64,000 nt of DNA from an uncultured Candidatus Saccharibacteria bacterium. Lineage in GTDB: Bacteria; Patescibacteriota; Minisyncoccia; Spechtbacterales; 2-12-FULL-38-22. A model generated the notes under the pieces. It was not told the DNA's origin. It ran no database searches and worked only from the letters and a program-made list of their open reading frames with translations. Positions within the stretch are counted from its first letter, which is position 1, and each line of letters starts with the position of its first letter. The translations under genes were made by a program, and so were the position numbers. The DNA lies in assembly GCA_964393575.1 (NCBI GenBank), contig CAYMUG010000002.1, positions 341 to 64,340 on the forward strand, given 5' to 3'. Shown here one piece after another: positions 1,343 through 56,400 of this stretch.

Positions 1343-1365
1343 GGTTAGGTCGGCTCCGCCTCACA
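1343..1365 (-). promoter_or_regulatory. conserved 5' leader motif copy (GTGAGGCGGAGCCGA-N-ATG)
   Basis: It matches the leaders upstream of rpmA, mraY, rplI, sodN and sodX. Confidence 0.5.
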
Positions 1366-1427
1366 AAATACTTCAAACACTATAACTATGACTATGACAC
1401 AGCGCTCGTTGCGCGAGCGCATTAATT

Positions 1428-1539: not shown

Positions 1540-2523
1540 TTACCTCAGGCGTGAACCTATAATTTGTGGATGGCCTTTTAAAAATTCTTCGGATTTTACA
1601 GGATTTTTGCCCTCAAGTTGCACTTCTTCGGGGACAAAAATACCTTCTCCTGCCTGCACAGCGAATGAATTTTTGTATTTTTTAACAATACCCCGGGAAG
1701 AAGATTTTTTTTGACTTTCAGGGAATTCCGCGCGGCCGTTTAATATTTTAAGTTTTCTATTATTCCAATCAGTATAAATTCCGGGCCAAGGGGTAAAAGC
1801 GCGTAATTTCCTTTCTATAGTTAAGGCGGAACCTGTCCAATCAATTTTTCCGTGGTCACGCAAAATAACACCTGAATACGTAGCGTTTTGATGGTCCTGG
1901 TCCTGAGGGTCTATATTGCCGGAAACCCATTCGGGTATAGTTTCTATGAGCAATTCACCGCCTACGTGCGCTAATACATCACGTAATTCCGGAGCGGTAA
2001 TGTTATCCATTGTTTTATTTTTGTATTTTTGATGGTCGGCATTTGGTAATTCCAAAAGTTGTTGTGCAACTAGCGGTCCGTGGTCTATTTTTTCATCCAT
2101 TAAAATGATACTCACCCCCGTAACTTCATCTCCGTGCAGAATTGTATATTGAATGGGGGAAGGACCACGCCAACGAGGCAAGAGAGAGGGATGAACATTT
2201 AATGTTCCGTGTTCCGGGGCATCTAAAATTTTTTTGGGTAAAATTTTGCCATAATCAGCTACTATAAATAGTGAGTTGTGAGTAGCGATTAGTGAGTGAA
2301 AATCATCATCAAATTTCTCAGGTTGAGTTACTTTTATGCCTTCTTTTTCTGCCGTCAGTTTTACAGGAGGAGAAGTTAACTCCTTTTTTCTGCCGGTAGG
2401 TTTATCGGGCGTGGTCACAACCAAGCCCGGCTTATAACCGTTTTCTATGAGATGTTTTAGAATGATATCGGCAAATTCGGCGGTGCCGAAGAAGATAATG
2501 TTTATTTTATTCGTTTCACTCAT
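1540..2523 (-). CDS. fmt: methionyl-tRNA formyltransferase
   Basis: The N-terminal formyltransferase fold is present (IIFFGT, HPSLLPRWRG), followed by the C-terminal domain. It sits downstream of def. The start is taken at MSETNKIN (2523) rather than at the track's upstream M. Confidence 0.9.
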   Translation of the reverse strand: MSETNKINIIFFGTAEFADIILKHLIENGYKPGLVVTTPDKPTGRKKELTSPPVKLTAEKEGIKVTQPEKFDDDFHSLIATHNSLFIVADYGKILPKKILDAPEHGTLNVHPSLLPRWRGPSPIQYTILHGDEVTGVSIILMDEKIDHGPLVAQQLLELPNADHQKYKNKTMDNITAPELRDVLAHVGGELLIETIPEWVSGNIDPQDQDHQNATYSGVILRDHGKIDWTGSALTIERKLRAFTPWPGIYTDWNNRKLKILNGRAEFPESQKKSSSRGIVKKYKNSFAVQAGEGIFVPEEVQLEGKNPVKSEEFLKGHPQIIGSRLR

Positions 2524-5134: not shown

Positions 5135-5276
5135 ATTTCCACATTGTATTTTGTATACGACATCCTAATATGCTATAATATATTTAAGGAATTACAATTA
5201 ATGTTTACAAGCTCGCTTTACTTGTAGTTTCAACAAGACATTTGCTATTCGGTATAGCGGGCTTACAAATTAATCT

Positions 5277-6531: not shown

Positions 6532-6654
6532 GCTCACTCCGTTCCGACTTAACGTAGGAACTCCGTTCACACTATTACAATAACCATAACCATTACATTA
6601 TTGCGCGAAGCGCAATAATTCACAATTCTTGATTCATGATTCTTAATTCTTTTT

Positions 6655-7815
6655 ATGAGCGCAGCGAATAAAATAAAAGTAGCCATAGATTGCCATAAAT
6701 TAGAAGATAAAACCGGAGCCCATAGAGCCGGTATAGGCAGACATCTATACCGTTTTCTTGAAGAGGCATCAAAACAAAAAGAACTTGAAGGCAAATTCAA
6801 ATTTTATTTGTATTTTAAAAGCGGAGTACCAAAAGACATACCTTTTTTGCAGGAGAAAATATTTGTTAACAAAGTAGCAAAACTACCTTTCTTTTTTCCG
6901 TTTTTCCGCCCCTCTTTTAATGTATTTTTTCATATAGCTATACCTATTTTAGCGTTAAAAGACAGAATAGACGTTGCGTTTTTCGCTTCGTTTATGCACC
7001 CCGCATTTTATATAGGCAAAACCGCAGTTGTTTTGACAAACGATATCTACTATGAATCCTCGCAACGCAGTCAACCGCTAAAATACCGCATAGGTTATAA
7101 ACTTTTTGCCACGTGGGCAGCCAAACGAGCTACAACCATAACCACGCAAACATATGCATCACGCAAAGAAATATCCAGATGTTATAATGTGCCTGAAGAT
7201 AAAATTATAGTTGTGCCTTTGGGGGCGGATTTTACAGAATTTACGCCGGAGGATAACGAAAAAGACAACTATATTTTATATGTGGGTCAAGCGTTCCCAC
7301 GTCGACATCTTCGCGAAACTATAAATGCGTTCAGGATTATTGCACCTGAATTTCCTCAACTGAAATTTATTGCAGTAGGATTAGATAAGTATAATCCTCC
7401 CATCATCGATGATTTGGCAAAAAAAACCAACAAAGAACTGGGGGAGGAAAGGGTGATAAGGAAAGAATCTGTTTCCGACGAAGAATTAAAGGAATTATAT
7501 AGAAAGGCACAAACATTTGTATATATTTCTTCTTCGGAAGCAATGGGCTTACCTCCACTTGAAGCCCTCGCTTCCGGCACTGTTCCTGTCGTTGCTGATA
7601 CACCCACTACCAATGAAATATTTGAAGATAAAGCGTTTTTTGTAGAGAATACAGAAAGCCCCCCAGCAATAGCGGAAAAAATAAAGAGATCAATTACAGA
7701 TAATGATAGAAGAAATTATATTCTGCAGAACAAAGATAAGATTTTACAAAAGTACACATGGAAAAAACACACCGATAAAATGTTGGAATTATTTAAGCAT
7801 ACCGTTCAAAAATAA
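6655..7815 (+). CDS. GT1/GT4-type glycosyltransferase
   Basis: The C-terminal EAMGLPPLEALASGTVPVV motif is typical of GT-B retaining transferases. Confidence 0.8.
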   Translation: MSAANKIKVAIDCHKLEDKTGAHRAGIGRHLYRFLEEASKQKELEGKFKFYLYFKSGVPKDIPFLQEKIFVNKVAKLPFFFPFFRPSFNVFFHIAIPILALKDRIDVAFFASFMHPAFYIGKTAVVLTNDIYYESSQRSQPLKYRIGYKLFATWAAKRATTITTQTYASRKEISRCYNVPEDKIIVVPLGADFTEFTPEDNEKDNYILYVGQAFPRRHLRETINAFRIIAPEFPQLKFIAVGLDKYNPPIIDDLAKKTNKELGEERVIRKESVSDEELKELYRKAQTFVYISSSEAMGLPPLEALASGTVPVVADTPTTNEIFEDKAFFVENTESPPAIAEKIKRSITDNDRRNYILQNKDKILQKYTWKKHTDKMLELFKHTVQK

Positions 7816-14135: not shown

Positions 14136-14165
14136 AATGTTTTTGTGAACGTAGCGAACAAAATT
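14136..14165 (+). promoter_or_regulatory. conserved 5' leader motif copy (GTGAACGTAGCGAACAAAATT-ATG)
   Basis: Same motif family as upstream of rpmA, mraY, sodN and sodX. Confidence 0.5.
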
Positions 14166-14615
14166 ATGAAAGTTATATTATTAAAAGACGTAAAAAATTT
14201 AGGAAAACAGGGTGATGTAAAAGAAGTAAAAAACGGTTACGCCCGCAATTTTCTCATTCCACAGGGTCTGGCCAAAGCTGCCACAAAGAGCGCATTAAAA
14301 CAACACGAAAACGAATTAAAGTTTCGTGAAGAAAAGGGCATGCAAGAACTTAAGGAAGTTGAGAAATTAGCGGAGCAACTGGAGGGTCATGAAGTTATGA
14401 TCAAAGAAAAAGCTAACGAAGAAGGTAAATTATACGCTGCAGTTGACGAGGAAAAGATAAAAGAGGTTCTTGGCAATGAAAACACTACGATAAAAGCGGA
14501 ATGGGTGAAGTTGGACAAAAAAATAAAAGAAACAGGGGAGTATGAGGTTAAATTAGAATTTGACCATGGCATTGAAGCAAATATCAAAGTTATAATAGAA
14601 AAAAAGGAAGAATAG
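14166..14615 (+). CDS. rplI: 50S ribosomal protein L9
   Basis: The N-terminus [32 protein letters not shown] matches L9. The start is taken at the second ATG on the basis of the leader-motif alignment. Confidence 0.85.
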
Positions 14616-16755: not shown

Positions 16756-16885
16756 GATTATTTGTTCGGCTCCGCCTCACAAAAACATTTGACAATTGAC
16801 TTTTAACCTTTGACTGTGCTCGTTTTGCGAGCGCTCGGAAGATCGCGGGACGATTTTGTCAGGAGTCAGGTGTCGAATGTTAGAT
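16756..16885 (-). repeat. copy A of a ~130-bp intergenic leader/promoter element (leader motif + GCGCTCG-N-CGAGCGC palindrome + 4 heptad TGTCA-like repeats)
   Basis: It is about 88% identical to 36047-36172, which lies upstream of mraY. Confidence 0.7.
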
Positions 16886-16937
16886 GTGCTGGTAGAGTGA
16901 GCTTGCCGAAGGATTGTATTAATGCTATTTTATTCTC

Positions 16938-24627: not shown

Positions 24628-24656
24628 AAACCCGCGCTGTTTCGCGCGGGTTTTTT
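24628..24656. terminator. terminator hairpin aaacccgcgc-tgtttc-gcgcgggttt + T6
   Basis: A near-identical copy at 25094-25121 points to local duplication. Confidence 0.6.
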
Positions 24657-25005
24657 AGGAACCTTTATATTTACCTCTTAATTTGTTTATAATTTTTCTT
24701 AGTTTTTCTGTTGTTTTGTAATATAGTTCTTTTATGGCTTGTGCTATAATCACACACAGCCCACCGAGAATAACCGCAACCAGTCCGGCAGCAAACAAAA
24801 TGCCTGAGGTATTATAGCTTATCTCCTCGCCATTGATAAGCGTAATCACGCCTGCAACTAACACGCTAAGTAAAGTATCATCGCTTATCTCTACCCCCAA
24901 GAATAGCATGGATAAATAAGTTAACTCTTTCCATACCTCAAAAAATAACAGTATATAAATCAGAAGAAGTACCACAATTATTAATCTGCACATCCACCGA
25001 ACCAT
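24655..25005 (-). CDS. small membrane protein, divergent member of the tandem two-TM paralog array
   Basis: Hydrophobic helices and a C-terminal IxELYxK-like motif are shared with the neighbours. Confidence 0.5.
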   Translation of the reverse strand: MVRWMCRLIIVVLLLIYILLFFEVWKELTYLSMLFLGVEISDDTLLSVLVAGVITLINGEEISYNTSGILFAAGLVAVILGGLCVIIAQAIKELYYKTTEKLRKIINKLRGKYKGS

Positions 25006-25093
25006 CCAACCTCCTTTTGTAGAAGAACTAATTATATGATATCAACTATATTGTCACTTTGCCATACAGACAGACCACCTTTTAAAAAATTTT

Positions 25094-25121
25094 AAACCCG
25101 CACTGTTTCGCGCGGGTTTTT
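25094..25121. terminator. duplicate of the aaacccgcrc-tgtttc-gcgcgggttt hairpin
   Basis: It differs from 24628-24653 at one position. Confidence 0.55.
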
Positions 25122-25149
25122 AAGAGCGTTTAGTTTATTTATTAGTTTT

Positions 25150-25416
25150 TCAGCGTTCCAGTTTCTCTCTTATTTTGCTGTATATTGTTTTTGCCGTAAA
25201 CGCTATGCCTGCAATCATCGCAAACAGCATAACAGCGGCAGTAAAAGCCATTACTATTGCTACAGTGACACTCATAGCATCATGTACTTCTGTGGGTCTA
25301 TAATATACGAAAATGTAACTCAGCGCTCCCCAGGTGCCGAGAAATAACATTATAAAGAACAAGGTGAATCCGGTGGCTATGAGGGCGCTGCCTATCGATT
25401 CATACGTTTTACGCAT
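25150..25416 (-). CDS. small two-TM membrane protein (paralog array member C)
   Basis: The motifs LGTWGALSYI and MIAGIAFTAKTIYSKI are shared with 25409..25921. Confidence 0.55.
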   Translation of the reverse strand: MRKTYESIGSALIATGFTLFFIMLFLGTWGALSYIFVYYRPTEVHDAMSVTVAIVMAFTAAVMLFAMIAGIAFTAKTIYSKIREKLER

Positions 25417-25921
25417 CTAATCTCCTCTCTATCGTGTTATAGATTGCTTTTGCTACTGCTACTATAATTACAAACAGCACAATAGTCGTAAAACCAGTTA
25501 CACCTATGGCTAACATTATACCTGAAAAACCACCACTTATATCTATACCCAAGGATAAGAAGTAACCCCAGACGCTGAAAAACAATATTATGGGAATCAA
25601 AGTCAATACAGCAGCTATCACTCTGCGCATTCGATAGGGCATCCAAACATTAAGTTCCGGCACTCTTCTAATTTCTTCCATGATAAAGCTATATATTACC
25701 TCTGCCGTGAACGCAATACCCGCAATTAACCCAATCAGCACAGCAATAGCAGCCAACCCCATTCCTATTGAGAAGATTACCCCCACAGCATCATATACCT
25801 CTACGGGTCCGTGCGATGCAAGAATATAAGTCAGCGCTCCCCATAGGCCGAGGAGTAAAAATACGATGAGCGCAGTGAGTGCCGTAGCTGTCAGCTTGCG
25901 CTTGAGTATACCCACATACAT
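25409..25921 (-). CDS. membrane protein made of two tandem copies of the two-TM module
   Basis: Internal repeat: LGLWGALTYI...LIAGIAFTAEVIYSFI, then SVWGYFLSL...VAVAKAIYNTIERR. Confidence 0.55.
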   Translation of the reverse strand: MYVGILKRKLTATALTALIVFLLLGLWGALTYILASHGPVEVYDAVGVIFSIGMGLAAIAVLIGLIAGIAFTAEVIYSFIMEEIRRVPELNVWMPYRMRRVIAAVLTLIPIILFFSVWGYFLSLGIDISGGFSGIMLAIGVTGFTTIVLFVIIVAVAKAIYNTIERRLDA

Positions 25922-25954
25922 CTACATTCTCCTTTTTGTTGAAGAACGTGTTTC

Positions 25955-26191
25955 TTACTCCCCGAAATAAATTGCCTCATAGAGTTCTTTTGTTAATCTT
26001 GCTGCAACATAAACCAAAAGAGACAACATAATAGTGACAATCAAACTCAATACAATCGCAACGAAAATGACCGCGAAAGTATACGCTTCTCCTTCGAAAT
26101 ACATGTAAATGTTATAAGCGAGTACTCCCCAGATACCCAAAAATGACAGTGCAGACATAAGGGCGAGTGCAGCGGATACCTTTTTGCGCAT
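25955..26191 (-). CDS. small two-TM membrane protein (paralog array member A, first gene of the operon)
   Basis: The motif LGIWGVLAYNIY is present. AAGGAG lies 6 nt upstream. Confidence 0.55.
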   Translation of the reverse strand: MRKKVSAALALMSALSFLGIWGVLAYNIYMYFEGEAYTFAVIFVAIVLSLIVTIMLSLLVYVAARLTKELYEAIYFGE

Positions 26192-26227
26192 CCCGTCTCC
26201 TTTTCTGTTGGCAAACTAACTGGAATG

Positions 26228-26256
26228 ATTATAATCACTTTCAAGTGTACTGTCAA
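26228..26256 (-). promoter_or_regulatory. perfect sigma70 consensus promoter TTGACA-17-TATAAT driving the small-membrane-protein array
   Basis: On the minus strand: TTGACA (26256-26251)-17 nt-TATAAT (26233-26228). Confidence 0.6.
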
Positions 26257-26259
26257 ATT

Positions 26260-27210
26260 TTATTCTTCTCCGTTTTCACCGTGGAGTTTTTTGTGTATTT
26301 CTTTCAGGCGCTTGTTGGTTACGTGGGTGTAAACCTGGGTTGTAGCTATATTTTTATGACCCAAAAATTCCTGTACTGTTCGCAGGTCAGCCCCTTTAGA
26401 GAGTAGGTCGGTGGCAAATGTGTGGCGCAGAACATGCGGGGTAACATTAACCGGCAGAGCTGCCATTTTAGCGTAACGATTAATCGCGTTTTGTATGTAA
26501 CGCGGAGACAGGCGCTTGTCTTTGTTTTTAGAGCGATAGTTTATAAATAGCGGTTTTTCCATATCCGTGCGGGTGTTGTCATATTCTTTCATCCATTTTA
26601 AAGCTCTGGGTGAAAAGAACACCGTACGGGGTCTCTCGCCCTTGCCGGTTATATTAAGCTCCAGTGTATTTTCAACCTGCCTCAAGTTAATTTGTTCCCG
26701 GTCCAAATTCACAAGTTCCGCAATACGCATTCCCGTAGAAAACAACACTTCCATAATAGCACGATCCCGCAGGCCTGCGCGTGTATTGGTGTCCGGCATT
26801 GAAAGAAGCTTTTCTACTTGCTCCCCGGTTAAAAATTTAACGGAATCTTTGTCCGTTCCCTTGGGCAGCTTTATTTTAGTTGAGGGGAGGGAGTTTATAT
26901 CACGGTCGGCAAAATAATCCAAAAGGGCTCTTAGCGATACAAGATAGTAATTCTGTGTTTTTCGGGAGAGATTTTGATTGTCCCGTGTTTTATATTTGCG
27001 CGCAAGGAACAACCTATAATTCCATACCTCCTCTGCCGTTAGCTGGTGGGGGAGTAAATCTTCTTTTTTCTCGTCCCGCAGCCATTTTTTAAAAGTTTCC
27101 AGGTATCTTTGATAGTTTTCCTGGGTTTTATTACTCAAACCTTTTTCTATTTCACAGTAATCCAGAAAATCAGGTATATGTTGCATAATTGTTTTTTTTG
27201 ATTTTTGCAT
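26260..27210 (-). CDS. tyrosine recombinase, XerC/XerD family
   Basis: An N-terminal core-binding region is present, together with R...HVLRHTFAT...LGHKNIATTQVYTHV catalytic motifs. The start is taken at MQKSKK. Confidence 0.8.
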   Translation of the reverse strand: MQKSKKTIMQHIPDFLDYCEIEKGLSNKTQENYQRYLETFKKWLRDEKKEDLLPHQLTAEEVWNYRLFLARKYKTRDNQNLSRKTQNYYLVSLRALLDYFADRDINSLPSTKIKLPKGTDKDSVKFLTGEQVEKLLSMPDTNTRAGLRDRAIMEVLFSTGMRIAELVNLDREQINLRQVENTLELNITGKGERPRTVFFSPRALKWMKEYDNTRTDMEKPLFINYRSKNKDKRLSPRYIQNAINRYAKMAALPVNVTPHVLRHTFATDLLSKGADLRTVQEFLGHKNIATTQVYTHVTNKRLKEIHKKLHGENGEE

Positions 27211-27355
27211 AAGGGGAGTAGAAGAATTAGTTATATGAATAGGTTCGCACAATATAGGTAAAGCGAATTATGTACTTCTTTTTATTATATATACACACTT
27301 TTTTATAGTCAAACCCTATTTATCCTTAAATATATTTATAGATAATATAATAATT

Positions 27356-36046: not shown

Positions 36047-36172
36047 AGATTTGTTCGGCTTCGCCTCCAAAAACATTTAACAATTGACTTTTAACTTTTG
36101 ACTGCGCTCGCTTTGCGAGCGCCCGGAAAATCGCAAAACGATTTTGTCAGGAGTCAGATGTCAAATGTCAGC
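36047..36172 (-). repeat. copy B of the ~130-bp leader/promoter element
   Basis: It matches 16756-16885, sharing the leader motif, the GCGCTCGCTTTGCGAGCGC palindrome and the heptads TGTCAGG/AGTCAGA/TGTCAAA/TGTCAGC. Confidence 0.7.
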
Positions 36173-36187
36173 TGGGCGGAGCGAGCT

Positions 36188-54555: not shown

Positions 54556-55098
54556 TTAGCTATGCCATTTTTCTTCCGCCCTGCCTTCTTTGTGGTTCAG
54601 ATAACGCGCGAGAGTAAAAAAGACATCGGAAAGCCGGTTTACATATGACTGCACCATTTGTTGTTGAAGATCCAAAGAAACGATTCTCCTCTCTGCACCC
54701 CTCGCCTTAGTACGGCACAAATGTATAAGTGAGGCGGCTTTGGTGCCTCCGGGTAAAATAAAATTTGTCAGCTCCGGTAAATCTTTTTCAAATTGCTTGA
54801 TAGTTTTTTCCAAAAATTCAACACGGTCTTCTGTTAGTTCGGGGGCGGGACTTGAATCTTCTGAGTCAGGTGCAACCCCTAAGCTGCTTTGTGCGGTAAA
54901 AATATCGCGTTGTATTTCTTTCAAAGTTTCATTTACTTCGGAATATTGAATAAAAGAATTAGCAACTCCTAAAAAACTGTTTAGTTCATCTAAAGCACCA
55001 AGCGCATGAAAACGCTCGGAATTTTTAGAGAACTTTTTTCCCATAGCTCCGAATAAATTGGTCTTCCCGTTATCACCTTGTCCGATATTTGGTTTCAT
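54556..55098 (-). CDS. PduO-type ATP:cob(I)alamin adenosyltransferase family protein
   Basis: MKPNIGQGDNGKTNLFGA...DELNSFLG matches the MMAB/PduO family. The start is taken at MKPNIG. Confidence 0.75.
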   Translation of the reverse strand: MKPNIGQGDNGKTNLFGAMGKKFSKNSERFHALGALDELNSFLGVANSFIQYSEVNETLKEIQRDIFTAQSSLGVAPDSEDSSPAPELTEDRVEFLEKTIKQFEKDLPELTNFILPGGTKAASLIHLCRTKARGAERRIVSLDLQQQMVQSYVNRLSDVFFTLARYLNHKEGRAEEKWHS

Positions 55099-55123
55099 AA
55101 TTACAACGAATCGGTTTTTCTTG

Positions 55124-55435
55124 TTACTTATTACTATCAATTACCTTCCCCACAATATCAAGACGGGTTACGGGGCCAAAGTGCCTGCTGTCAGTGCTGT
55201 TTTTGTAATTATCTCCTTCTACAAAATACTGTGATCCGCTTTTACGAACTATCCTTTTCATCATTCGAATAGTTTTATTTCCGGGATGTTTAATTACAAC
55301 TACATCGCCTACGTCGGGTTTTGTAAATAAATAAGCAAGGCGACTTACTAACACTTCATCCCCCTGCTTATATTCGGGTTCCATACTTTTACCCTTAACC
55401 GTATAACGAAAGATTGGAGAAAATTTAGAGGCCAT
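55124..55435 (-). CDS. sodX: S26 signal-peptidase-like NiSOD maturation protease
   Basis: GKSMEP (Ser), a KR motif and GDNYKNSTDSRHFG are present. It lies immediately downstream of sodN. The start is placed at MASKFS (55435), which is preceded by the leader motif. Confidence 0.65.
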   Translation of the reverse strand: MASKFSPIFRYTVKGKSMEPEYKQGDEVLVSRLAYLFTKPDVGDVVVIKHPGNKTIRMMKRIVRKSGSQYFVEGDNYKNSTDSRHFGPVTRLDIVGKVIDSNK

Positions 55436-55466
55436 TGTTTTGTTCACTGCGTTCACAAAATCGTAA
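55436..55466 (-). promoter_or_regulatory. conserved 5' leader motif copy (GTGAACGCAGTGAACAAAACA-ATG)
   Basis: Leader motif family. Confidence 0.45.
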
Positions 55467-55499
55467 CCCGTATTACTTATTACGGCGAGCGTAGTAAAC

Positions 55500-55955
55500 T
55501 TATTTAGCTTGATTCTCCATATTTTTACGGACCGCATCGTAATCATATCCTTCTTTTGTGCGTGCAAATGCTTCACCTACTTCATCCACACACTCAAGAA
55601 GATGTTGCGCATCTTTTTCTTCTACCGTTTTTTTTGCCTGGCCGGCGGCCTTTGTAGCCCTCCAGAATAAATCGTGAATATCGGTTCCCCCCGCTTCTTC
55701 CAGATGATGCGGTTTAAAGTAATCCGTCCAAAGAACCCACAAGTGATGCTTAACGTATTCTGCTCTTTCCTCTTTAATTAAAAGCGCGCGTTGCTTTTCT
55801 ACATCACTTTCAGAATTATGATAAATTTTAACCGCATTATAGACGCTTTGCGCTTCAATGCGTGCCTGTGCGGGATCATATACTCCACAGAAAAGGTCGC
55901 AATGAGCATACACATCTCCTGCGTCTATTAGTTTTGAGATAAGATTCTTAAACAT
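55500..55955 (-). CDS. sodN: nickel superoxide dismutase precursor (leader + HCDLFCGVY Ni-hook)
   Basis: HCDLFCGVYDPAQARIEAQSV...HHLWVLWTDYFKP aligns along NiSOD. The leader peptide precedes His1. Confidence 0.85.
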   Translation of the reverse strand: MFKNLISKLIDAGDVYAHCDLFCGVYDPAQARIEAQSVYNAVKIYHNSESDVEKQRALLIKEERAEYVKHHLWVLWTDYFKPHHLEEAGGTDIHDLFWRATKAAGQAKKTVEEKDAQHLLECVDEVGEAFARTKEGYDYDAVRKNMENQAK

Positions 55956-55985
55956 AATTTTGTTCACTGCGCTCACAAAGTAATA
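55956..55985 (-). promoter_or_regulatory. conserved 5' leader motif copy (GTGAGCGCAGTGAACAAAATT-ATG)
   Basis: Leader motif family. It is nearly identical to the rplI leader. Confidence 0.45.
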
Positions 55986-56150
55986 ATGCGAATGATGCTA
56001 ATTTTTATGCGAATGATACGAATTGTTTTTGGTTTAATTCGCGGCATTCGCATGCCTGCCTGCAAAAGCGAGGCGGCGGGCAGGCATTCGTGTCATACAA
56101 TTCATGATATTCGCATTATTATAAAGCGAGCGAAGCAAGTATTAATTATA
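55986..56150. repeat. composite palindromic intergenic element (outer IR taataatgcgaat.../...attcgcattatta; inner GCCTGCC...GGCAGGC palindrome; 3' block related to 1470-1515)
   Basis: Read directly. Confidence 0.55.
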
Positions 56151-56166
56151 AAAATTGAGGTATAGT

Positions 56167-56400
56167 TTATGACTCAAGTAAATCTTCTAAGGCCTCTTTA
56201 TCAAAACCAATGAGGACTTTTTCTCCGACCTGAATAACGGGAACTCCCATTTGACCTGATTTATCTATCATCTCCTGTCGCGCTTCCTGATCCTGAGTTA
56301 CATCCTTCTCATTATACTCAATTTCGTTTTCTTTAAAGTACTCTTTTGCCATTTTGCAGTAATGGCATGTTGGTGTAGTGTATATGGTAACTTGTGACAT
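56167..56400 (-). CDS. glutaredoxin-like thioredoxin-fold protein (CHYC active site)
   Basis: YTTPTCHYCKMAK...GVPVI is present. Confidence 0.7.
   Translation of the reverse strand: MSQVTIYTTPTCHYCKMAKEYFKENEIEYNEKDVTQDQEARQEMIDKSGQMGVPVIQVGEKVLIGFDKEALEDLLES

Follow-up and report, generated by a model that had tools for sequence, protein, structure and literature searches.

The sodN–sodX locus

The window analysed here is a stretch of 64,000 nucleotides of contig CAYMUG010000002.1 (assembly GCA_964393575.1) from an uncultured Candidatus Saccharibacteria bacterium. It carries on its minus strand two adjacent genes, sodN and sodX, coding for the precursor of a nickel superoxide dismutase (NiSOD) and for a small S26-type peptidase, respectively. 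In SodN the N-terminal Ni-hook has Phe at position 5, where the canonical residue is Pro, and both genes are preceded by nearly identical 21-nucleotide (nt) leaders.

The sodN product starts with MFKNLISKLIDAGDVYA, a leader peptide, and continues with HCDLFCGVYDPAQARIEAQSV. It matches the Sod_Ni family PF09055 over profile positions 3-127 of 127 (E=6.5e-34, 117.7 bits at a threshold of 25) and the sodN equivalog TIGR02753 of NCBIfam with 117.3 bits at a curated cut-off of 90. In a phmmer comparison residues 18-135 of SodN pair with residues 1-116 of the crystallised S. coelicolor/S. seoulensis NiSOD chains (E=2.5e-25), in agreement with the first-pass annotation, made from the sequence alone, which had described the open reading frame (ORF) 55500..55955 as aligning end to end with NiSOD. 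One match in the homolog search, P0129 (4827 aa, 47 matched stretches), is devoid of the hook and was discarded as spurious.

The ATG start codons of sodN and sodX are favoured over the upstream GTG starts (55976 and 55576) of the mechanical ORF list, because they fit the leaders of homologs, which comprise 8-44 aa and end with x-x-A directly ahead of HCD. Ala at position -1 is nearly invariant in an alignment of 51 sequences, and the SodN leader ends with V-Y-A before His; its cleavage at this site would make His residue 1 of the mature protein. An AlphaFold2 (AF2) model of mature SodN, built on the same alignment of 51 sequences, has a mean predicted local distance difference test score (pLDDT) of 92.7 and a predicted template modelling (TM) score of 0.86. 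It comprises four long helices, of which the second and third are separated by a short one, and an extra C-terminal helix. The best 16 Foldseek matches of the model in the PDB are all NiSODs, with TM(target) of 0.89-0.90 for 1t6u, so that the model has the four-helix-bundle fold of the family. The PDB alignment stops at query residue 135, and the C-terminal extension GYDYDAVRKNMENQAK lies beyond the region shared with the Streptomyces enzyme; the AF2 model has a helix, H122-132, at this end of the protein.

sodX is located 64 nt downstream of sodN. Its product scores 75.8 bits with TIGR02754, 'nickel-type superoxide dismutase maturation protease' (cut-off 63.25, profile positions 3-88 of 90), and matches Peptidase_S26 PF10502 with E=4.4e-22; TIGR02227, a model of signal peptidase I in general, gives 83 bits (cut-off 47), its best stretch covering only profile positions 21-79 of 162. 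The motifs GKSMEP, KRIV and GDNYKNSTDSRHFG can be read from the SodX sequence, and the catalytic dyad, as judged from the S26 family, is presumably formed by the Ser of GKSMEP and the Lys of KRIV. In 67 of 79 genome loci, taken from contigs of one genome per species, a SodX homolog lies at most 1 kb from sodN; 35 of these loci have a Phe5 or Met5 hook. With both genes above the NCBIfam curated cut-offs, the sodN–sodX module of the first-pass annotation, with the downstream S26 peptidase taken for SodX, is a sound assignment at the level of sequence.

The closest homologs of SodN, showing 60-78% identity, come from metagenome-assembled genomes (MAGs) of Candidatus Spechtbacteria/Spechtbacterales and Saccharibacteria, and several of them are annotated 'superoxide dismutase, Ni'. 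In a syntenic relative, Candidatus Spechtbacterales HN14.bin.41 (locus L001), the gene order around sodN is the same as in the window.

Residue 5 of the Ni-hook

Read on the minus strand, the hook codons are CAT (55904-55902) for His1, TGC for Cys2, GAC for Asp3, CTT for Leu4, TTC (55892-55890) for Phe5, TGT for Cys6, GGA for Gly7, GTA for Val8, and TAT for Tyr9, which confirms the earlier reading of codon 5. The Ni ligands predicted by homology are the N-terminus and imidazole of His1, the amide and thiolate of Cys2, and the thiolate of Cys6. SodN agrees with the published hook consensus, H-C-x-x-P-C-G-x-Y, at eight of nine positions, the exception being Pro5. The same Pro is lacking in 173 of 268 sampled NiSOD homologs; therefore, the published consensus is too narrow and gives no ground for excluding SodN. 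Throughout the 268 homologs H1, C2, C6 and Y9 are invariant and D3 and G7 nearly so, while D3, G7, E17, R47, D61, Y62 (or F), and K64 are kept in the query and in the 173 homologs without Pro5. The second-sphere residues Asp3, Tyr9, Glu17, Arg47, Asp61, Tyr62 and Lys64 (S. coelicolor numbering) are thus all present in SodN.

The first-pass annotation regarded Phe5 as a notable variant of this organism, a view that does not survive comparison with homologs. Among the 120 closest database homologs position 5 is Met in 80, Phe in 38, Ala in one, and Pro in one, so that 119 are devoid of Pro5, and their hooks read HCDLMCGVY (80), HCDLFCGVY (38), HCDLACGIY (one, P0059) and HCDLPCAVY (one, P0072, in which Pro5 is accompanied by a Gly7-to-Ala change). 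In the 79 genome loci Phe5 or Met5 hooks are found in 46; their hosts belong to Spechtbacterales, Saccharibacteria, Nitriliruptoria and many Acidimicrobiia, some of the last with complete chromosomes, and one is a Myxococcota-labelled MAG, while Pro5 occurs in other actinobacteria as well as in cyanobacteria and proteobacteria. When representatives of 50%-identity clusters were searched without an index, 112 of the best 150 had a recognisable hook, with Pro in 99, Tyr in seven, Phe in three, and Met in three. Phe5 is the ordinary state of a large, environmentally widespread NiSOD subfamily and, as far as the homologs indicate, is not peculiar to this organism. Position 5 is therefore variable in natural homologs, which the first-pass annotation had named as a point that would speak against its interpretation if seen in characterised enzymes; none of the variable homologs has been characterised biochemically.

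In a neighbour-joining tree of 268 distinct mature SodN sequences nearly all non-Pro hooks fall into one clade of 166 (83 Met, 75 Phe, five Tyr, one Ala, two Pro). Fitch parsimony places Pro at the midpoint root and the clade of 166 as derived; within it, Met, Phe and Tyr replace one another repeatedly, with neither Leu nor Ile among them. The Tyr5 hook HCDLYCGVY (e.g., P0127, P0141, P0171) occurs in a sub-branch beside Phe5 sequences of the Acidimicrobiia type. The simplest reading of this distribution is that the clade members are working NiSODs with a large hydrophobic residue at position 5. The natural Met/Phe/Tyr5 subfamily appears to be undescribed and uncharacterised, its members being routinely annotated as NiSOD.

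The departure of Phe5 from the hook consensus, together with the reduced genome of the organism, could be taken to mean that Phe5 is disabling, or that it results from a sequencing or assembly error or from gene decay, the module being non-functional. However, the identical hook HCDLFCGVY is found in 38 of the 120 nearest independent proteins and in dozens of genome loci, the ORF is full-length, the other functional residues and the adjoining protease gene are intact, and the gene order is kept in L001. Such an explanation is highly improbable, being effectively refuted by the distribution of homologs.

The sets with and without Pro5 also differ strongly in columns 22-24 and 35 and in the C-terminal extension: on passing from Pro5 to non-Pro5 sequences, column 24 changes from I/M to A/S/T, column 35 from N/D/E to V/I, and column 22 from K to Y/L/F. 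The extension of ca. 16 aa is conserved in the branch of the candidate phyla radiation (CPR), while Acidimicrobiia have a different tail. Strict coupling of the extension to residue 5 was considered and rejected, since Met5 sequences of Nitriliruptoria are devoid of the conserved extension, as is the Met5 protein of L016, and the Pro5 revertant P0072 has it. As the non-Pro sequences constitute essentially one clade, the column differences may reflect shared ancestry, and no firm coupling to residue 5 can be claimed from them.

These differences bear on a second explanation, according to which the Met/Phe/Tyr5 subfamily differs in mechanism from canonical NiSOD. In the Streptomyces holo-enzyme Leu4 and Pro5 are joined by a cis bond, and Phe, Met or Tyr at this place would normally favour trans, so a structural difference in the hook of such proteins is possible; the first-pass annotation had likewise supposed that Phe5 may alter the geometry of the loop. 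With a trans 4-5 bond in place of that of cis-Pro5, the hook backbone would be different, and the bulky polarisable side chain would cap the Ni-thiolate site, altering substrate access, redox tuning, thiolate protection or the kinetics of Ni loading. The restriction of position 5 to Met, Phe and Tyr (plus a single Ala) in 173 sequences is consistent with this explanation, and the fact that the one-step codon intermediates Leu and Ile are never seen suggests selection for a kind of side chain over mere tolerance. Most members of the subfamily also have C-terminal extensions, and the native prolyl bond is cis according to the title of Tietze et al. 2010. Nevertheless, the ligands and second-sphere residues are all unchanged, the co-varying positions are inseparable from shared ancestry, the extension does not strictly follow residue 5, and the title of Basak et al. 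2022 states that Pro5 is not essential for hook formation. A separate mechanism is accordingly regarded as rather unlikely, though with more in its favour than a defective gene.

The leader and the palindromic inserts

The 18-mer GTGARCGCAGTGAACAAA is found at 55959-55976 and 55439-55456 (minus strand), in each case 3 nt from the ATG, of sodN and sodX, respectively. With up to 3 mismatches allowed it has four matches in the window, as compared with 0.06 expected from shuffled sequences, so the leader shared by the two genes, which the first-pass annotation had pointed out, is genuine. Its meaning as a sod-specific signal did not hold, though, as the same motif precedes genes of other kinds. 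In total eight copies of the leader motif are scattered over the 64 kb, 3-7 nt ahead of start codons, each closing a palindromic insert of 55-190 nt (Table 1). In gene orientation the inserts comprise a 5' box (AAGCTCRC or GCTTCGCTCGC) complementary to the leader motif, a variable, internally palindromic stretch of 40-160 nt, the motif proper (TTTGTGAG...GAACAAA), 3-7 nt, and the ATG. With its A-rich tail the motif conforms to its surroundings, the leaders of the window being A/T-rich and most of its genes devoid of a Shine-Dalgarno sequence.

The largest of the two inserts at the sod locus separates grx, a glutaredoxin gene, from sodN. The 191-nt stretch 55950-56140, reaching just past the sodN ATG, folds in RNAfold with a minimum free energy of -65.8 kcal/mol (z=-6.15 against shuffles), and a promoter-like sequence, TTAATA-16-TATAAT, identified as a consensus match only, lies ahead of sodN at 56145-56118. 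In L001 the corresponding spacers have 20 nt (grx-sodN) and 4 nt (sodN-sodX), as compared with ca. 190 and 64 nt in the window, and contain no motif; there is also no match with up to 3 mismatches in 558 kb of other sodN loci (80 loci). Since L001 and the other sodN loci are devoid of the motif, the inserts appear lineage-specific, and they look like palindromic insertions resembling miniature inverted-repeat transposable elements (MITEs). The inserts upstream of rpmA (16780-16889) and of the mraY-like gene (36068-36177) are 87% identical over 110 nt and are therefore recent copies of one element.

Near-identical 21-mers placed 3 nt ahead of both ATGs, with a strongly structured region upstream of sodN, would also be expected of a sod-specific cis-regulatory site, an operator or an RNA element responding to Ni or oxidative stress and co-regulating sodN and sodX. 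Against this stands the occurrence of the same motif, in the same layout, at rplI, rpmA, the mraY-like gene, the glycosyltransferase family 4 (GT4) gene, and two small ORFs, as well as its absence from the syntenic Spechtbacterales locus and 80 other sodN loci and its presence in unrelated metagenome contigs described below. Co-regulation through the leader is thus very improbable, and the leader motif, as its distribution indicates, is not evidence for it.

A part of the motif can be read as codons. In three 21-nt copies (14145-14168 on the plus strand, 55435-55456 and 55955-55976 on the minus strand) the GTG of the motif is in frame with the ATG and would add M-[SN]-[AV]-[AV]-N-K-[IT] to the protein, and in the GT4 gene (6655-6675, plus strand) the first motif codon is ATG, the only start available to the ORF. 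A role of the motif as an N-terminal coding extension was nevertheless rejected: the 23-24-nt copies and those of other contigs do not keep the frame, and most of the differences between copies are non-synonymous substitutions.

The leader motif beyond the window

The exact pattern TTTGTGARCGYAGYGAAYAAA was found in 62 metagenome contigs ranging in G+C content from 23% to 67%, while a rough chance expectation is a handful. It is also present in five contigs of the viral collection, one of them with a six-copy tandem array of an 83-nt period. The motif-bearing contigs constitute loci L081-L147 (e.g., L081 6562-6582, L103 7709-7729, L133 5619-5639). Copies outside the window are mostly intergenic, and in many of them flanks that are variable but complementary form a stem with the motif at its apex. 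In a high-G+C soil family it lies inside CCCTCCCC...GGGGAGGG repeats located directly after genes, in the form CCACCCTCCCCTTGAGGGAGGGTCGAtAA[motif]TTTCGGGGAGGGG. Some copies are situated in or beside tRNA-like arrays: in L093, L097 and L127 the motif comes, in each array unit, after the 5' half of a tRNA-like sequence, and in L141 the motif stands 5 nt ahead of a tRNA gene. Six copies, five of them at the 83-nt period, occupy 1682-2263 (minus strand) of L131 (= L146), a contig also present in the viral collection, and 14 relaxed matches are found on the 2.4-kb contig of L094.

The motif (21-24 nt) is predicted to fold into a 5-bp UUUGU/ACAAA stem, a GA/GA internal loop, two or three G-C pairs, and a GNA triloop. 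In the hairpin predicted for the sodN copy there are 2 bp between the GA/GA loop and the triloop, while the 23-nt variants of the window (GGC-GRA-GCC) lengthen the same stem. Positions R8 and Y14 covary as one base pair, with G..C in 40, A..T in 12, G..T in five, and A..C in one of the de-duplicated cases (Fisher's exact p about 1e-7, relatedness ignored), the single A..C case being a DnaE coding coincidence. Tolerance of G·T and not of A·C suggests that the motif works as a single strand of a given polarity.

No known element was found to account for the motif. Rfam 15 gives no match in the whole window at gathering thresholds, and none over the motif at E<=1 in eight motif-bearing loci. BLAST matches to plasmids are chance 17-20-mers only, the matches of a motif 15-mer in the literature are a coincidence in the pSC101 backbone, and apart from this vector coincidence no paper with the motif sequence was found. 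Resemblances noted by eye to lacO1, the CRP site, the Tn3 and IS5 inverted repeats, the hammerhead core, and the type I-F CRISPR repeats are partial and were rejected.

As a more speculative view, which we hold with distinctly less confidence than the preferred one, the motif may be a widespread, unnamed structured single-strand motif carried by palindromic elements, and the Met/Phe/Tyr5 NiSODs, for their part, may represent a natural subclass with a non-proline hook of altered geometry. The motif may in that case be of the GCGNAGC mini-hairpin type with a tandem G·A loop, acting as RNA or single-stranded DNA, and the elements located 5' of start codons, those of sodN and sodX included, could control translation or the processing or stability of the mRNA. 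If the leader motif is truly a functional element, it would be a new cross-phylum structured motif deserving a study of its own.

Genetic neighbourhood

The order grx-sodN-sodX-pduO-hydrolase-murF is identical in the window and in L001, where collinearity extends from greA, via grx, sodN, sodX, a PduO-type homolog and an alpha/beta hydrolase gene, to a murF-like gene. The string of grx, sodN, sodX and the homolog of PduO-type ATP:cob(I)alamin adenosyltransferase spans 54556-56400 (minus strand) in the window and 3651-5301 in L001. The PduO-type homolog is an unexpected neighbour, the lineage not being known for cobalamin metabolism. The mean G+C content of the window is 40%, and the rest of its gene complement is typical of CPR, with genes for the cell wall and for glycosyltransferases, a sortase gene, and genes for ribosomal proteins and tRNA synthetases. 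When the 64 kb were scanned with Rfam at gathering thresholds, no RNA gene whatever, tRNA included, was detected. At 24655-27252 (minus strand) small genes with strong AAGGAGG-type Shine-Dalgarno sites form a cluster beside a tyrosine recombinase/integrase gene (26260-27252); it may be an integrated foreign element.

Table 1. Features of the sodN–sodX locus, its flanking genes, and the copies of the leader motif in the window.
Feature	Position	Strand	Remarks
sodN (NiSOD precursor)	55500..55955	-	151 aa plus stop; ATG 55955, stop 55502-55500
SodN leader peptide, 17 residues, MFKNLISKLIDAGDVYA	55905..55955	-	read from sequence; predicted removal by SodX before His1
Ni-hook segment HCDLFCGVY	55878..55904	-	ligands by homology
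Codon 5 of mature SodN, TTC = Phe (canonical Pro)	55890..55892	-	read from sequence
SodN C-terminal extension, ca. 16 aa, GYDYDAVRKNMENQAK	55503..55550	-	not in Streptomyces NiSOD; predicted extra helix
sodX (NiSOD maturation protease, minimal S26 Ser/Lys peptidase, 103 aa)	55124..55435	-	ATG 55435, stop 55126-55124
Palindromic insert grx/sodN, ca. 185 nt	55956..56140	-	5' box GCTTCGCTCGC, leader motif at end
Intercistronic insert sodN/sodX, 64 nt	55436..55499	-	leader motif at end
Leader motif copy TTTGTGAGCGCAGTGAACAAA	55959..55979	-	3 nt before sodN ATG
Leader motif copy TTTGTGAACGCAGTGAACAAA	55439..55459	-	3 nt before sodX ATG
Leader motif copy	1345-1368	-	before 67-aa ORF (start 1343)
Leader motif copy	5209-5276	+	before 76-aa ORF (start 5277)
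Leader motif copy	6652-6672	+	at GT4 glycosyltransferase gene (start 6655)
Leader motif copy	14142-14162	+	before rplI (ATG 14166)
Leader motif copy	16761-16784	-	before rpmA (16755)
Leader motif copy	36050-36073	-	before mraY-like gene (36046)
Glutaredoxin gene (grx), upstream of sodN	56167..56400	-	PF00462 E=1.4e-20; same order in L001
PduO-type cob(I)yrinic acid a,c-diamide adenosyltransferase homolog, downstream of sodX	54556..55098	-	TIGR00636 164 bits, cut-off 108; same position in L001

Interpretation

The preferred reading, to which we assign a probability of roughly 0.85, is that the locus is a functional sodN–sodX module of a Candidatus Spechtbacterales-like member of Patescibacteria (CPR), as judged from the names of homologs and from synteny, with a Phe5 typical of its clade and a leader unrelated to the function of the superoxide dismutase (SOD). 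SodN is probably a functional enzyme, as had been proposed. The two genes would form an oxidative-stress module in which sodN provides the NiSOD precursor and a cytoplasmic SodX cuts off the 17-residue leader after ...VYA, exposing His1. Ni would then be bound by the amine and imidazole of His1, the amide and thiolate of Cys2, and the thiolate of Cys6, in an N-terminal hook placed on a four-helix bundle. Met, Phe and Tyr would be three interchangeable bulky residues replacing Pro5 in a large derived subfamily comprising Patescibacteria, Acidimicrobiia and some Nitriliruptoria, and the Ni-hook is expected still to form with Phe5. The leader, for its part, would be a hairpin at the 3' end of the small, MITE-like palindromes inserted directly upstream of several start codons. 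What the analysis shows directly are the gene identities, the conservation of residues, the fold, the synteny, and the distribution of residue 5 and of the motif, while leader cleavage, Ni binding, SOD activity, hook geometry, and any role of the inserts are inferences.

Several points weigh against this reading. The literature gave no biochemical data on any Met/Phe/Tyr5 NiSOD, and a non-prolyl residue strongly disfavours a cis 4-5 bond, so hook geometry or kinetics could differ. Residues 1-10 are poorly modelled by AF2 (mean pLDDT 62, residues 1-3 below 50), as is expected for a hook modelled without its metal, and the model is therefore silent on hook geometry and on Phe5. The genome scan included the Phe-containing pattern YAHCDLFC, which biases it towards Phe, and the neighbour-joining tree is a quick one, made from a sample biased towards relatives of the query. 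Finally, no Ni importer was found in the 64-kb window, most of the genome being unseen; annotation of the listed ORFs, covering the majority of those with 60 aa or more, revealed neither a Ni transporter nor a Nur-like regulator nor a second SOD.

As regards the gene itself, little follows from the preferred reading: it adds one NiSOD/SodX pair to a phylum from which the enzyme has already been reported, and indicates that this CPR lineage invests in oxygen defence. More general is the conclusion that the textbook consensus H-C-x-x-P-C-G-x-Y does not cover a natural Met/Phe/Tyr5 clade that keeps the ligands, the second-sphere residues, and the SodX partner, which calls for caution with motif-based screens requiring Pro5.

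Comparison with known systems

Palindromic intergenic repeats are represented by the Correia elements of Neisseria, the enterobacterial repetitive intergenic consensus (ERIC) sequences, and the repetitive extragenic palindromic sequences (REP) with the bacterial interspersed mosaic elements (BIME). The inserts of the window are likened to them by architecture, no sequence similarity having been established: like them, they are imperfect palindromes of small size (55-190 nt) that end in inverted repeats, are multi-copy, intergenic and lineage-specific, and lie in probably transcribed spacers beside gene starts. The 21-nt hairpin recurs over contigs of 23-67% G+C, which is not typical of species-specific REP or MITE families, and has no Rfam match.

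The SodX protein shares with the family TIGR02754 (S26) the Ser of GKSMEP, the Lys of KRIV, the GDNxxxSxDSR box, and the adjacency of its gene to sodN. It is very small, and, unlike in the closest syntenic relative, its gene is set off from sodN by the 64-nt repeat insert.

NiSODs of Patescibacteria MAGs, thus of the same phylum-level host group as SodN, have been noted before, and the first-pass annotation, which named mainly Actinobacteria, cyanobacteria and marine lineages as NiSOD hosts, had omitted this phylum. In the preprint of Sutherland et al. 2021 Patescibacteria sequences are placed inside a Chloroflexota-rich NiSOD clade, and Starr et al. 2018 note a NiSOD in the rhizosphere Saccharibacterium T. 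rhizospherense; a word search in these two papers gave no passage on the hook motif. The strings HCDLFCG and HCDLMCG were not found in the literature searched, nor was P5A together with NiSOD.

The S. coelicolor/S. seoulensis NiSOD (PDB 1T6U, 1Q0D) is a four-helix bundle like SodN, with ca. 43% identity over the mature domain, and shares with it His1-Cys2...Cys6, Asp3, Gly7, Tyr9, Glu17, Arg47, His53, Asp61-Tyr62-x-Lys64, and a cleavable leader ending with Ala, which in SodN has 17 aa. SodN differs from the Streptomyces enzyme in having Phe for cis-Pro5 and a C-terminal extension of ca. 16 residues predicted as a fifth helix. In addition, sodX is located downstream of sodN on the same strand, while in the actinobacterial loci fetched it lies on the opposite strand.

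The closest experimental counterpart of the hook described here is P5A-NiSOD, an engineered S. coelicolor mutant which, like SodN, is devoid of Pro at hook position 5 and in which, by the title of the report, the Ni-hook still forms (Basak, Zambelli, Cabelli, Ciurli, Maroney, J Inorg Biochem 2022;234:111858). P5A-NiSOD has a laboratory Ala in a Pro5-adapted background, whereas the Phe of SodN, and the Met or Tyr of its relatives, have been fixed naturally across a clade. The Met/Phe/Tyr5 clade offers in this respect a natural test of the contribution of cis-Pro5, complementary to the engineered P5A.

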